This document shows positions 7,841 through 10,607 of a stretch of DNA of 15,556 nt, one piece after another. Numbering within the stretch: the stretch's first letter is position 1; every line of letters begins with the position of its first letter. The stretch comes from Candidatus Bipolaricaulia bacterium. Its GTDB lineage: Bacteria > Bipolaricaulota > Bipolaricaulia > JBHIAT01. The stretch spans positions 1-15,556 of the forward strand of contig JBHIAT010000080.1 in the NCBI GenBank assembly GCA_046758705.1, written 5' to 3'. A program made the translations under genes and the position numbers. The notes beneath the pieces are model-generated. The model was not told the DNA's origin. It saw nothing but the letters and a program-made list of their open reading frames with translations, and did no database searches.

Positions 7841-8755
7841 TTGCTGACCGATACCGATACGGCTACTGCTATCAATTGGCACTGGCATCCAGACGTGTTT
7901 GTCGTGCTGCTGCTGATCCAAGGTGCTTACCTCCTCGGTGTCGGACCGCTGCGTCGGCACTTCGATTGGGCGGATTCGGTAGACCCCCGTCATGTCGCCG
8001 CGTTCTCACTGGGAGTTCTGGTCATCTTTATTGCCGCAGGCACGCCGCTCCACGAGCTGAGCGAGGGGTATCTGTTCAGCGCACATATGCTGCAGCACGT
8101 GCTGCTGACGCTCGTGGCTCCCCCGTTGCTGCTGCTGGGAACGCCGGGTTGGTTGCTGCGTCCGCTGCTGCGTTTGCCGATCGTTATGCCGGCGGCACGG
8201 TTTCTGACTCTGCCGCTGGTGGCGTTTGTCCTGTTCAACGTGGTGTTCGCGATCTGGCATCTGCCGGTCCTTTATGATTTGACGCTCGGGGATCACCCGA
8301 TTCATATCGCCGAGCATCTGCTGTTTATGGGAACCGCTCTGCTGATGTGGTGGCCGATTTTGAGCCCACTGCCCGAGTTGCCTCGGCTTTCCTATCCGAG
8401 CCAAATGCTCTATCTGTTCTTGCTATCGGTCGCACAGCTCCCGGTGTTTGCGGTGATCACCTTTTCCGATAGGCTGCTCTATACGGGATATGCCGAGGCA
8501 CCGCGACTGTGGAATCTCTCGGCCCTCAACGACCAACAGATCGGCGGGATCTTTATGAAGGTCGCCGGCATGCTGATCTTTTTGCTGGTGCTCGCCATCG
8601 TATTTTTCCGATGGTTCCATCACGAGGCGGAACAGGAGCAGGCACCGGCCCTGACCCGTCGTCAACACGTCCTCATTCAAGACCTGGAGAAGCACTTGGA
8701 GACCGAAGGAACGAAAAAAGACGGAGGCGCAGAGATAGATCATAGATCAGAGTAA
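7841..8755 (+). CDS. ctaG: caa3-type oxidase assembly factor CtaG
   Basis: YLFSAHMLQHVLLTLVAPPLLLLG, WHLP.LY, H..EH, WWP and DQQIGG motifs. Position after the structural subunits. TTG start is uncertain. Confidence 0.92.
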   Translation: MLTDTDTATAINWHWHPDVFVVLLLIQGAYLLGVGPLRRHFDWADSVDPRHVAAFSLGVLVIFIAAGTPLHELSEGYLFSAHMLQHVLLTLVAPPLLLLGTPGWLLRPLLRLPIVMPAARFLTLPLVAFVLFNVVFAIWHLPVLYDLTLGDHPIHIAEHLLFMGTALLMWWPILSPLPELPRLSYPSQMLYLFLLSVAQLPVFAVITFSDRLLYTGYAEAPRLWNLSALNDQQIGGIFMKVAGMLIFLLVLAIVFFRWFHHEAEQEQAPALTRRQHVLIQDLEKHLETEGTKKDGGAEIDHRSE

Positions 8756-8787
8756 TCGTTGAAAGGAGAAAGGAGGGTTTCCCGATC

Positions 8788-8973
8788 TTGACAAACCGTC
8801 CGTTTTTCCCCTTGTTGGTGCCGTTGATGGCCGTGCTGTTCATTGCCGTGATCGCAGGTGGGCTGGGGGCACTGTTCTTAGAGATTGGCCGAAACGGGAC
8901 GATCGCCTTGGGATTGGTCATCGTCATCTTGGTGCCGGCTGTAAGTGCCCTGTTGGCCCAAACTAGACGCTAG
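8788..8973 (+). CDS. Small 2-TM membrane protein (61 aa), probably co-transcribed with the oxidase operon
   Basis: Strong RBS (GAAAGGAGGG) before the TTG. Two hydrophobic segments joined by EIGRNG, and a basic C-terminus. Lies 32 bp after ctaG. Confidence 0.65.
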
Positions 8974-9200
8974 GTTGGTGATGATGCGGTTAAAAGATCG
9001 GGTGGCGATCATCACCGGGGCGGGCCGGGGCATCGGGCACGAAACGGCGCAGCTGTTCGCCGATCACGGGGCCACCGTCATCGTCTGTGACCTCGATGAA
9101 GCCGCGGGCAAGGATACCGAAGATCCCACTGGGACGATTCGCTCAGCCCCGCGACGTGGCCAACCTCTATCTGTTCTTGGCCAGCGACGAGTCAGATTAT

Positions 9201-9349
9201 TCATTCTTTCAGCGGCTAAAACCGCGTACTTTTAGTGCAATGCTATGTGTACCAGGCCGGGCGCGGCCTGCGTGGAGACGAGAACCTCTGCTTGTGCAAG
9301 TTCCGTCTGTGAAGCGAGAAGCCACGTACTTTAGTGCGTGGAGCGTCAC
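9201..9349 (+). mobile_element. Non-autonomous IS200/IS605-family mini-element (149 bp; left end plus omega-RNA-like right end, no tnpA or tnpB)
   Basis: Removing 9201-9349 restores GAT TAT ATC AAC (D-Y-I-N) with no target duplication. Inserted 3' of TTAT and ends in TCAC. Right end: GAAG followed by hairpin CCACGTAC-TTTA-GTGCGTGG (9318-9341). Left end: AAAA followed by the related hairpin CCGCGTAC-TTTTA-GTGC (9218-9238). Confidence 0.88.
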
Positions 9350-9369
9350 ATCAACGGAGCCGTCATCAC
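9253..9369 (+). ncRNA. Putative TnpB omega-RNA (reRNA) scaffold with a flank-derived guide
   Basis: GCCTGCGTGGAG...GTGAAGCGAGAAG-hairpin-TCAC layout, as in IS605/IS1341 right ends. Stem AGACG(A)GAAC / GTTCCGTCT. GTGA (9309-9312) can pair with the terminal TCAC (9346-9349), like the omega-RNA pseudoknot. The guide would be 9350-9369. Boundaries are approximate and expression is not shown. Confidence 0.6.
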
Positions 9370-9436
9370 CGTGGACGGCGGATTGGTGGTATAATCGACT
9401 GTGCTGGCTGAGGTCAGGCTCAGATCCGGTTCTGGG

Positions 9437-9466
9437 TTGAAAATTTCCCTGATCTCATGCTAACAT
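9437..9466 (+). promoter_or_regulatory. Putative sigma70 promoter of the HTH-nuclease-like gene
   Basis: TTGAAA (9437-9442), 18 bp spacer, TAACAT (9461-9466) with an extended -10 TG at 9458-9459. Confidence 0.5.
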
Positions 9467-9515
9467 GTGATGGTTCAAGCCTCAAGGGCAGGTTATGTTG
9501 TGGGGGTGAGCTGCA

Positions 9516-10607
9516 ATTTACTCCGTCAAGCTATTGACCGATATTCTCGATCTGTCTGAGCAGCAGGTGCGGTGCCGGATTCACGCCCTGGGAAGCTTGC
9601 TCGACCCGTACAGGGAGTGCGGGAGCCACAACCGCATCCTGATTCGCTCAGAGGGCCTGGAACTGCTCGAGAAGCTTGAGTTCTACCTGGCTCCCGGCCG
9701 GACCATTCACCATGCAGTAGAGCACCTGCGGGACGAAATCGAAGGGAGCAACGTACACCGCCCGCTTCCTGCCCCTCCGAAACCCCTGTCATCCCCCCAA
9801 GCACCGTGGTCACCTGAGCATATGTCATCGGAGTTGGGTTTGGAGAGTGAGCTCGTCGATCAGATGAAGGATTGGATTGGTTATCTCAAAAATCAGATCG
9901 AACGGCTCCACGAAGAGAAGAACCAACTCATCCAGCAAATGTTGATGGTGAAGGACTATCAGATCGACCGCCTGCAAACGATACTCCACCACCAGTTCGC
10001 CAAGGCGGAGTTGGGACAGGTCACCCAGATGCTCACCCGTGCGCTGCTCAGTCTGGTGGGCAAAGAAGAACTGGAGCAGGTGGGCGATTACCTCAAGGGC
10101 GGCGGTGTCGATGCCGAGGTTGCCGTCGATATCGAGCGAGAGTTGAACGAGGTCATCGGCAAAGATGACCGCTTGGAAGACGATTACATCGCCAAAGACG
10201 GCCATCGGTGTGACTCCAAGCACGAGAAACAGATCGACGACTACCTGTACGAGAAAGTCGTCCCCCACATTCGCGAACCCCGATATCCTTGGCACCCCAA
10301 ACTCAACCCCGGTACGCCCAACAGCGATCTGACGGAGGAGGACTGGGCACTGTCCCTGTATGCCACCTGGAAGGTCGGAAGGGTGTTCATCGAGTACTTC
10401 CCCCGAGGGCACCCCAAGCTCGAACGGGAGATCGAGCAGAAACATCAGCTGGCGAAAGAAACCGGCATCGAGTTGATCGCTATCTATTCGGAAGATATGG
10501 AGAATTCGGAGTGGCAGGAGAAGCTCCGGCCGTTGACCGAGAAGGGAGGCTGGCGGTACCGCAGTCAGAGTCGGGGCCAGGGCCGAGGGAAACGCCCAAA
10601 GTTCTAG
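9516..10607 (+). CDS. Hypothetical multidomain protein: N-terminal HTH-like domain, Pro-rich linker, coiled coil, C-terminal PD-(D/E)XK/restriction-endonuclease-like domain
   Basis: The frame is open from 9510 and reads IYSVKLLTDILDLSEQQVRCRI (MerR-like HTH pattern), then PLPAPPKPLSSPQAP, a heptad-rich region ELVDQMKDWIGYLKNQIERLHEEKNQLIQQ, and DGHRCDSKHEKQIDDYLY...EPRYP...DW...VFIEYF...K...GIELIAIY. Start is ATT 9516 or TTG 9534. Confidence 0.75.
   Translation: MYSVKLLTDILDLSEQQVRCRIHALGSLLDPYRECGSHNRILIRSEGLELLEKLEFYLAPGRTIHHAVEHLRDEIEGSNVHRPLPAPPKPLSSPQAPWSPEHMSSELGLESELVDQMKDWIGYLKNQIERLHEEKNQLIQQMLMVKDYQIDRLQTILHHQFAKAELGQVTQMLTRALLSLVGKEELEQVGDYLKGGGVDAEVAVDIERELNEVIGKDDRLEDDYIAKDGHRCDSKHEKQIDDYLYEKVVPHIREPRYPWHPKLNPGTPNSDLTEEDWALSLYATWKVGRVFIEYFPRGHPKLEREIEQKHQLAKETGIELIAIYSEDMENSEWQEKLRPLTEKGGWRYRSQSRGQGRGKRPKF

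Follow-up and report, generated by a model that had tools for sequence, protein, structure and literature searches.

The 15,556-nt window analysed here (contig JBHIAT010000080.1, C80 of the 319 contigs in a 3.7-Mb Candidatus Bipolaricaulia genome, G000) carries, at 9201-9349, a 149-nt element with no protein-coding gene between its ends. We read it, with a probability of about 0.75, as a decayed internal-deletion copy of a protein-less IS200/IS605 mini-element (PATE) of about 345 nt, whose intact copies combine a promoter with a two-part RNA containing a TnpB omega-RNA core and would be parasites of both transposon proteins, TnpA and TnpB. A first-pass annotation of the same DNA had called the window copy a guide-RNA-only element. 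That description suits the family, which is protein-less and carries the core, and is borne out in part for the window copy itself, a deletion derivative without promoter, 5′ domain or one arm of the left hairpin.

The boundaries of the element are set by the gene remnant that surrounds it. When the element is excluded, the frame of a short-chain dehydrogenase (SDR) remnant runs ...LASDESDY / INGAVITVDGG across the insertion and the C-terminal motif is restored. Two intact SDR paralogs, on C39 and C108, carry this motif (LASxxxD[FY][IV]xGxxxxVDGG) without interruption. Because the motif is split here and continuous in the paralogs, 9201-9349 represents a precise insertion after TTAT, with neither a target duplication nor inverted terminal repeats. 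Split blastn within the genome matched 9200-9238 and 9239-9349 to opposite ends of the 344-nt copies carried by C120 and C45, with identities of 100% on the left and 99.1% on the right. The window core differs from that of C120 by one base, which is unpaired, and every paired base is identical. Unitigs of two public DNA runs (X1 and X2) bridge the junction at 9238/9239, and the short form is therefore not an assembly artefact. The right hairpin is retained and the left hairpin lacks its 3′ arm, whereas full copies have both; folded as DNA, the left end reaches -4.3 kcal/mol (z -0.25) in the window copy against -15.6 kcal/mol (z -5.15) in a full copy. Judged by sequence comparison, then, the window copy is an internal-deletion derivative of an RNA-only element of about 345 nt. 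It is probably a recent truncation, a fossil that is immobile and has no promoter of its own, and a guide RNA could arise from it through read-through transcription only. In three metagenome runs the summed depth of unitigs climbs from about 10 to 130-376 across its last ~50 nt (9297-9349), which fits a right end common to many copies, possibly in other organisms, and is not a measure of copy number. The DNA runs contained no empty-site or excision joints, a negative that carries no weight since these runs consist of contigs.

The genome holds at least 15 copies of the protein-less mini-element. Our census of the assembly found 15 left ends (4 of subfamily A, 10 of B and 1 of C) and 21 right ends of the GGAGCGTCAC type, with further subfamilies C, D and E present. 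TTAT directly precedes all 16 left ends examined, namely the 4 A-type, 10 B-type and 1 C-type ends and that of one tnpB element. Full copies measure 320-345 nt; subfamily B includes six complete copies that are 100% identical over 320 nt, plus pieces at contig ends. From left to right a full copy consists of a nested left-end hairpin, a promoter-like site and a stretch of ~254 nt that reaches the right end. In B copies the promoter-like site reads TGGACT-17-TATAAT with an upstream TG (10 of 12 positions matched) and ends 7 nt before the conserved RNA; the scan gave two such sites in 700 nt where 0.3 were expected. The A-type promoter, read by eye, is TTGACT-17-TATAAC, and the block can be aligned across subfamilies A to E. 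As RNA, the ~254-nt stretch folds well (z -3.69), and of its 77 predicted consensus pairs 16 are compensatory. Full copies contain stops in all three frames and subfamily D has a 1-base deletion inside the 5′ domain, so the stretch is apparently non-coding. At the DNA level the full element was matched in 0 of 40 relatives and gave no blastn match in plasmid and phage collections.

Comparative evidence supports the view that the right part of the window element is the core of a TnpB omega-RNA and not merely a hairpin recognised by TnpA. Homology to the 3′ ends of the tnpB genes on C274 and C185 covers the final ~110 nt of the mini-elements and takes in degraded TnpB C-terminal codons (...GRGD.NLC...EARS...); the window core is 82.7% identical to the C274 end over 81 nt and 83.6% identical to the C185 end over 55 nt. 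Subfamily D bridges the mini-element core and these two tnpB ends, and the core of subfamily E matches a second tnpB lineage (C33/C14). The core terminates at the element's last base (9349), in the same orientation as in the tnpB-linked ends. A covariance model (R1) built from eight type-1 sequences scores the window core at 129.7 bits and has 26 matches in the genome: 12 mini-element cores, 7 tnpB-linked ends (C274, C185, C14, C33, C198, C184 and C5), 2 decayed ends (C24 and C297) and 5 contig-end pieces. Promoter and 5′ module are kept in 11 of the 12 mini-element copies whose core R1 matched in full. The layout of the core matches that of the ISDra2 omega-RNA. As described in the relevant passages of the structural work (Nakagawa 2023, PMC10097598), the latter has a 116-nt core scaffold with stems 1-4, a dispensable 5′ part (-231 to -117), a pseudoknot joining -5 to -3 with -105 to -103, a UUUA tetraloop at -20 to -17 and a stem 2 that joins about -35 to about -80. 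The window core likewise spans ~110-116 nt next to the would-be guide, with four stems, a pseudoknot between its last bases and the stem-1 region, UUUA at -20 to -17 and a stem 2 joining about -35 to about -80. On the same account the two differ in their motif, TTAT here as against TTGAT for ISDra2; moreover, the mini-element RNA is not overlapped by tnpB and, unlike that of ISDra2, its 5′ extension forms a distinct structured module behind a promoter-like site of its own.

The fold is also supported by covariation. Each of the helices pointed out in the first-pass annotation is present, namely the AGGCC-GGGCGC-GGCCT hairpin at 9254-9269 (extendable to 9253-9270), the AGACG(A)GAAC/GTTCCGTCT stem at 9276-9285 with 9300-9308 and the terminal hairpin at 9322-9341, as is the CGTGGAG block, which is invariant in 8 of 8 related right ends. 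In an alignment of eight sequences, four stems and the pseudoknot together have 94.6% of their cells paired, compared with 29-48% when partners are slid, and 11 of 33 pairs show compensatory changes on both sides. For four of five measures the observed values were reached in 0 of 500 shuffles; for the fifth, further pair types, 155 of 500 shuffles reached it. The single-sequence fold (z = -2.33) is weaker evidence than the alignment. Type-2 ends have CAG/CTG at the position of stem 2, and the pseudoknot varies by lineage as GGCG/CGUC, GGCA/UGUC or GACG/CGUC. G-U wobbles occur among the conserved core pairs (GU:8 in the pseudoknot, UG:6 in stems 2 and 4). These results, with the homology to tnpB ends and the ISDra2-like layout, bear out the earlier proposal that the retained right end is an omega-RNA scaffold. 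Stem 4 is likely to be also the right-end hairpin recognised by TnpA. For IS608 the terminal hairpin reportedly suffices for TnpA. Since cassette and core meet some 2-10 nt upstream of stem 1 in types 1 and 2, the retained part is more than the terminal hairpin that TnpA needs.

Two other pairings were set aside. The GTGA at 9309-9312 is complementary to the terminal TCAC (9346-9349), as had been remarked, but the proposed pairing does not hold up: there is no covariation, three of the four pairs never vary and the variable one breaks in 2 of 7 sequences. A pseudoknot with the stem-1 loop accounts better for the last bases of the element. The other candidate, a nested AUGCU/AGCGU closing stem, shows 92.5% pairing and no compensatory pairs, and it competes with the pseudoknot. 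Rfam gave no match in the window at the gathering score, its HgcC, IS605-related, RAGATH-18, HEARO and group I intron families included, and at an E-value threshold only a chance-level match to a long non-coding RNA near the element. Across eight related loci the only match, below threshold, was to HgcC (22.2 bits, threshold 50) at the right end of the C185 tnpB element (L008 22-117, minus strand; E 0.085), over the region of the terminal hairpin. This RNA family is archaeal, and the match hints that it may itself be omega-RNA-like.

Both proteins on which such an element would depend are encoded in the genome, which has 23 PF07282 (TnpB zinc-ribbon) and 6 PF01797 (Y1 TnpA) matches. The TnpB on C185 (394 aa) is apparently intact and matches the ISDra2 TnpB structures (8h1j, 8bf8/8exa) over nearly its full length with E ~1e-58. 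Its motifs GIDVG, AFESL and HRDHNSA are, on alignment, what we take to be the three RuvC acidic sites. The C185 tnpB element is preceded by the same TTAT, and both of its ends are homologous to those of the mini-elements; its left end resembles the A-type and has a TTGGCT box where the mini-element carries TTGACT. A B copy set against a tnpB paralog gives the same junction. At C65 137-456 (locus L012) a B-type mini-element stands after TTAT, antisense to the very start of the coding sequence of a type-1 tnpB paralog. The flank of this copy differs from the C185 tnpB start region at 1 position in 16; here an RNA-only element has therefore disrupted a copy of the gene family on which it would depend.

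From these parts we infer the following cycle. The RNA of an intact copy would consist of the ~140-nt 5′ domain and the ~110-nt 3′ omega-RNA core scaffold, and transcription past the right end would append flanking DNA as the guide. Resident Y1 TnpA would move intact copies to sites after TTAT, and their RNA would load the resident ISDra2-like TnpB in trans. The loaded TnpB would cut the empty TTAT-plus-flank site left by excision, and recombination after the cut would restore the element, making the family a parasite of both TnpA and TnpB. Seen this way, the earlier phrase that the window copy is programmed against the host SDR gene only restates that the flank is the guide; there is no second TTAT-adjacent match in the genome. 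Three single-mismatch matches to the window guide exist, none of them preceded by TTAT, and no second TTAT-adjacent target was found in the genome, at up to 3 mismatches, for this guide or the other 20. Exact matches of the 21 guides beyond their own flanks amount to one duplicate contig end.

The use of omega-RNA in trans by protein-less IS200/IS605 elements is already in print, and the concept put forward in the first-pass annotation is not a novel one. PATEs of G. stearothermophilus 'often encode omega-RNAs', on which TnpB of other elements would need to act in trans (Meers 2023 preprint, PMC10055086). As far as the PATE passages of that preprint go, the mini-elements are like PATEs in having no protein gene, in sharing their ends with resident tnpB elements and in presumably being mobilised in trans, and they are unlike them in two respects: full copies have a promoter-like site followed by a conserved ~140-nt 5′ RNA domain unrelated to tnpB coding sequence, and the same cassette occurs on three right-end lineages. 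A limited search of the literature on PATEs and TnpB turned up no work devoted to omega-RNA-only elements with promoters of their own, or to this leader. The promoter-plus-5′-module cassette looks new. Two further systems invite comparison, again from parts of the published accounts. In the omega-RNA regulators based on TldR, nuclease-dead relatives of TnpB, a TnpB-type guide RNA is likewise used away from a mobile tnpB gene; however, TldR guides target host promoters, whereas mini-element guides match their own flank only, and the co-resident TnpB here keeps its RuvC motifs. IStrons resemble our elements in placing a structured RNA module upstream of an omega-RNA in IS605-type ends, and a PATE with IStron ends has been shown (bioRxiv 10.1101/2023.11.20.567912). 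Unlike IStrons, the mini-elements have no tnpB inside and no group I intron or other Rfam match in their 5′ domain.

The first ~70 nt of the 5′ domain are nearly invariant across subfamilies A to E. It is not degraded tnpB coding sequence, since blastx against all open reading frames (ORFs) of the genome found only self and sister copies, except for the last ~80 nt, and no Rfam family matched it at the gathering score. Its predicted fold comprises two helices, P1 (ACAACGU/ACGUUGU) enclosing P2 (UGUUGC/GCAACG). These are 97.7% paired with 3 of 13 pairs compensatory in a MAFFT alignment of 10 sequences, and 96.2% paired with 9 of 13 compensatory in a model-fitted alignment of 12 sequences from four genomes, although a fitted alignment leans towards its model. 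Wobble pairs (UG:10 and GU:3) occur here too. Local hairpins of the module, GGGGUUGU/ACAACCC and CAACG/CGUUG, were rejected, having no compensatory pairs and 87.5% pairing. The sequence UAAAACGUUGUG occurs twice in the full-copy RNA (L011 1566-1820), once in the 5′ module and, in B copies, again just before the omega-RNA core. The ACAACGU 5′ strand could pair with either copy, the minimum free energy (MFE) fold of a B copy using the distal one, and this dual pairing may, on the folding model, represent a conformational switch. At C144 4468-4591 (loci L006 and L081) an isolated 5′-module fragment scoring 59.7 bits with a model of the module (R2) stands directly after TTAT behind a coding-like stretch, without promoter block or recognisable right end.

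The cassette is not confined to this genome. The module stands behind a similar promoter block in three other assemblies: G152, another Bipolaricaulota metagenome-assembled genome, with four cassette mini-elements (L022, L026, L028 and L030); a further metagenome-assembled genome with one element (L033); and G103, with one 5′-module locus in which both helices are fully re-coded. R2 matched in 5 of 151 genomes of the phylum, of which the matches in G118 and G023 are spurious, lying inside long ORFs without the conserved blocks; G128 and G100 gave short blastn matches of 22-26 nt (E 0.004-0.008). A gapped pattern of the module was found at 5 loci in genome contigs and at none in metagenome contigs; exact matches were absent for a 24-mer in the genome contig collection and for a 20-mer in the metagenome contig collection. 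The cassette is joined to cores of type-1 (C274/C185), type-2 (C33/C14) and type-3 (C67/C19-like) TnpB lineages, the right ends in G152 and L033 being of the third type (...GCAAGCC-hairpin-GG..GTTGAC), as in the C67/C19 tnpB lineage of the window genome. We consider it most likely that the module helps to express, stabilise, process or load the guide. More speculatively, and on balance doubtfully, a conserved promoter-plus-leader cassette may in Bipolaricaulota have been grafted repeatedly onto the omega-RNA cores of three or more TnpB lineages. This would yield mobile 'guide-RNA genes' that drive their own expression, outnumber the resident tnpB elements and live off them, with a leader that has a function of its own. 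Processing, stabilising or loading the guide would be candidate tasks for the P1-P2 stem-loop, as would the recruitment of another factor.

Cas12 descends from TnpB, and how a guide RNA welded to a nuclease gene became a separate, independently expressed locus is an open question. If the grafting proposal is true, the cassette elements are a case from nature in which dedicated guide loci that act in trans arose outside CRISPR. In any case the family is a testable one, with 15 or more RNA-only copies, a promoter-like site that is either shown or alignable in A to E, a co-resident ISDra2-like TnpB and a defined TTAT, and its leader RNA, conserved across lineages and genomes, is previously undescribed. 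The family would lend itself to tests of trans-loading, of what a 5′ leader does and of whether such hyperparasites are a burden or a help to tnpB elements. The window copy, recently truncated and probably inert, matters less than the family.

Several points weigh against our main interpretation. The promoter call presupposes sigma-70-like promoters in Bipolaricaulota. Covariation in the core may date from tnpB-linked ancestors, each mini-element subfamily having captured a ready-made end, and is therefore no proof of selection on the RNA inside mini-elements. In the window copy, 9350-9369 pairs with the scaffold (9271-9310) in the single-sequence MFE fold, which could hinder use of the guide; on this model the pairing is an accident of the SDR flank. 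A short type-2 PATE on C297 lacks stem 1; the core is therefore not spared by every deletion, and chance may explain why the window copy has kept it exactly. This C297 element (~1245-1398, locus L056; ~165 nt) has a left end like that of subfamily E, lacks promoter and 5′ module as well as stem 1, and is a second, differently truncated derivative. Finally, no PF07282 match was found in G152 (85% complete, 1.1 Mb) despite its four cassette elements; its tnpB may be missing from the assembly, or else the RNA works without TnpB.

The last of these alternatives leads to the main rival for the role of the 5′ module, in which the full-element RNA is TnpB-independent cargo: the module would serve as a regulatory small RNA, bind a protein or act as a ribozyme, and the core would persist only because of its young age and its overlap with the right end that TnpA needs. 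The module is indeed more strongly conserved than the 3′ domain, with invariant unpaired blocks and the compensatory P1/P2 changes in 9 of 13 pairs (12 sequences, four genomes), it travels with three right-end types, and in G152 it does so in four copies with no TnpB detected. We nevertheless regard this as rather unlikely. The joint in types 1 and 2 lies just upstream of stem 1, which leaves the core complete, pseudoknot partner included; the RNA points towards the right end, and read-out into the flank is therefore built in; and the RNA matches no known family.

We favour the omega-RNA interpretation also over the proposal closest to the first-pass annotation, in which the window copy itself functions as a one-spacer guide locus: read-through from the oxidase operon or from the SDR remnant would transcribe it, and it would load TnpB against TTAT + ATCAACGGAGCCGTCA. 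Its 111-nt core is intact, one unpaired base away from a full copy, and a 116-nt core is enough for ISDra2 in the passages cited (PMC10097598). The remarks that the element is co-oriented with the cox operon and that no obvious terminator intervenes also proved correct, the caa3 genes lying on the plus strand and a simple scan of 8600-9600 finding nothing terminator-like. Yet no promoter-like site lies upstream within 8600-9200, and the retention of promoter and 5′ module in nearly all copies with a full core, as given above, suggests a need for both. The left hairpin is broken, and so there would be no excision event for the guide to act on; the genome offers no other TTAT-adjacent target, and the flank pairs with the scaffold in the MFE fold. 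A functional guide locus at this site is thus improbable. As for an ordinary decaying repeat resembling a miniature inverted-repeat transposable element (MITE), with no RNA function and a structure that reflects the DNA hairpins of single-strand transposition, it could draw on the single-stranded DNA hairpins by which IS200/IS605 ends act (in the passages of PMC10055086) and on the many near-identical copies, which make conservation uninformative, but is very hard to credit given that several conserved pairs in core and 5′ module are G-U wobbles, weak in DNA, that a conserved promoter-like site points into the structure, and that stems 1-3 and the pseudoknot are located outside the terminal hairpin and match a solved RNA-protein complex (PMC10097598, in the parts cited).

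Features of the window in and around the mini-element
Feature	Positions	Strand	Basis or remark
SDR N-terminal remnant, pseudogene	8981..9127	+	Pfam adh_short, E=4.2e-9, profile positions 1-38 of 195 only; frame breaks afterwards
SDR C-terminal remnant, left piece, ending LASDESDY	9135..9200	+	translation; 22 residues
TTAT insertion motif (transposon-associated motif, TAM)	9197..9200	+	directly 5′ of the element
Left-end remnant	9201..9238	+	100% identical to first bases of full copies; 3′ arm of left hairpin deleted
Internal deletion junction	9238..9239	.	~194 nt of the full element gone, including promoter-like site and 5′ RNA domain
Omega-RNA core, 111 nt	9239..9349	+	99.1% identical to full copy C120; homologous to tnpB right ends
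Stem 1, CAGGCC/GGCCTG, loop GGGCGC at 9259-9264	9253..9270	+	4 of 6 pairs changed on both sides; 95.8% of cells paired
Stem 2, CGT 9271-9273 with GCG 9314-9316, encloses stem 3	9271..9316	+	100% paired in 8 sequences
Stem 3, AGACG(A)GAAC/GTTCCGTCT, 9276-9285 with 9300-9308, inner 3-bp stem	9276..9308	+	3 of 9 outer pairs changed on both sides
Stem 4, subterminal hairpin, UUUA loop at 9330-9333 (-20 to -17)	9322..9341	+	3 of 8 pairs changed on both sides
Pseudoknot 3′ strand GCGTC, pairs with stem-1 loop GGCGC at 9260-9264	9343..9347	+	the 4 pairs counted 100% paired; GC/AU switch
Would-be guide flank ATCAACGGAGCCGTCATCAC	9350..9369	+	SDR remnant continuation; sole exact genome match is its own site
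SDR remnant continuation INGAVITVDGGLVV*	9350..9394	+	translation; starts directly after the element

The host locus itself is simple. The plus strand of the window encodes a caa3-type cytochrome oxidase operon (COX2, COX1, COX3, COX4-cytochrome c and CtaG), after which comes the SDR gene remnant; the mini-element has the same orientation as the cox genes. Besides the insertion, the whole middle of the SDR is gone from 8981-9394, where the match to profile positions 1-38 is followed by the C-terminal 36 residues, and the gene either was a pseudogene already or was turned into one independently of the insertion.

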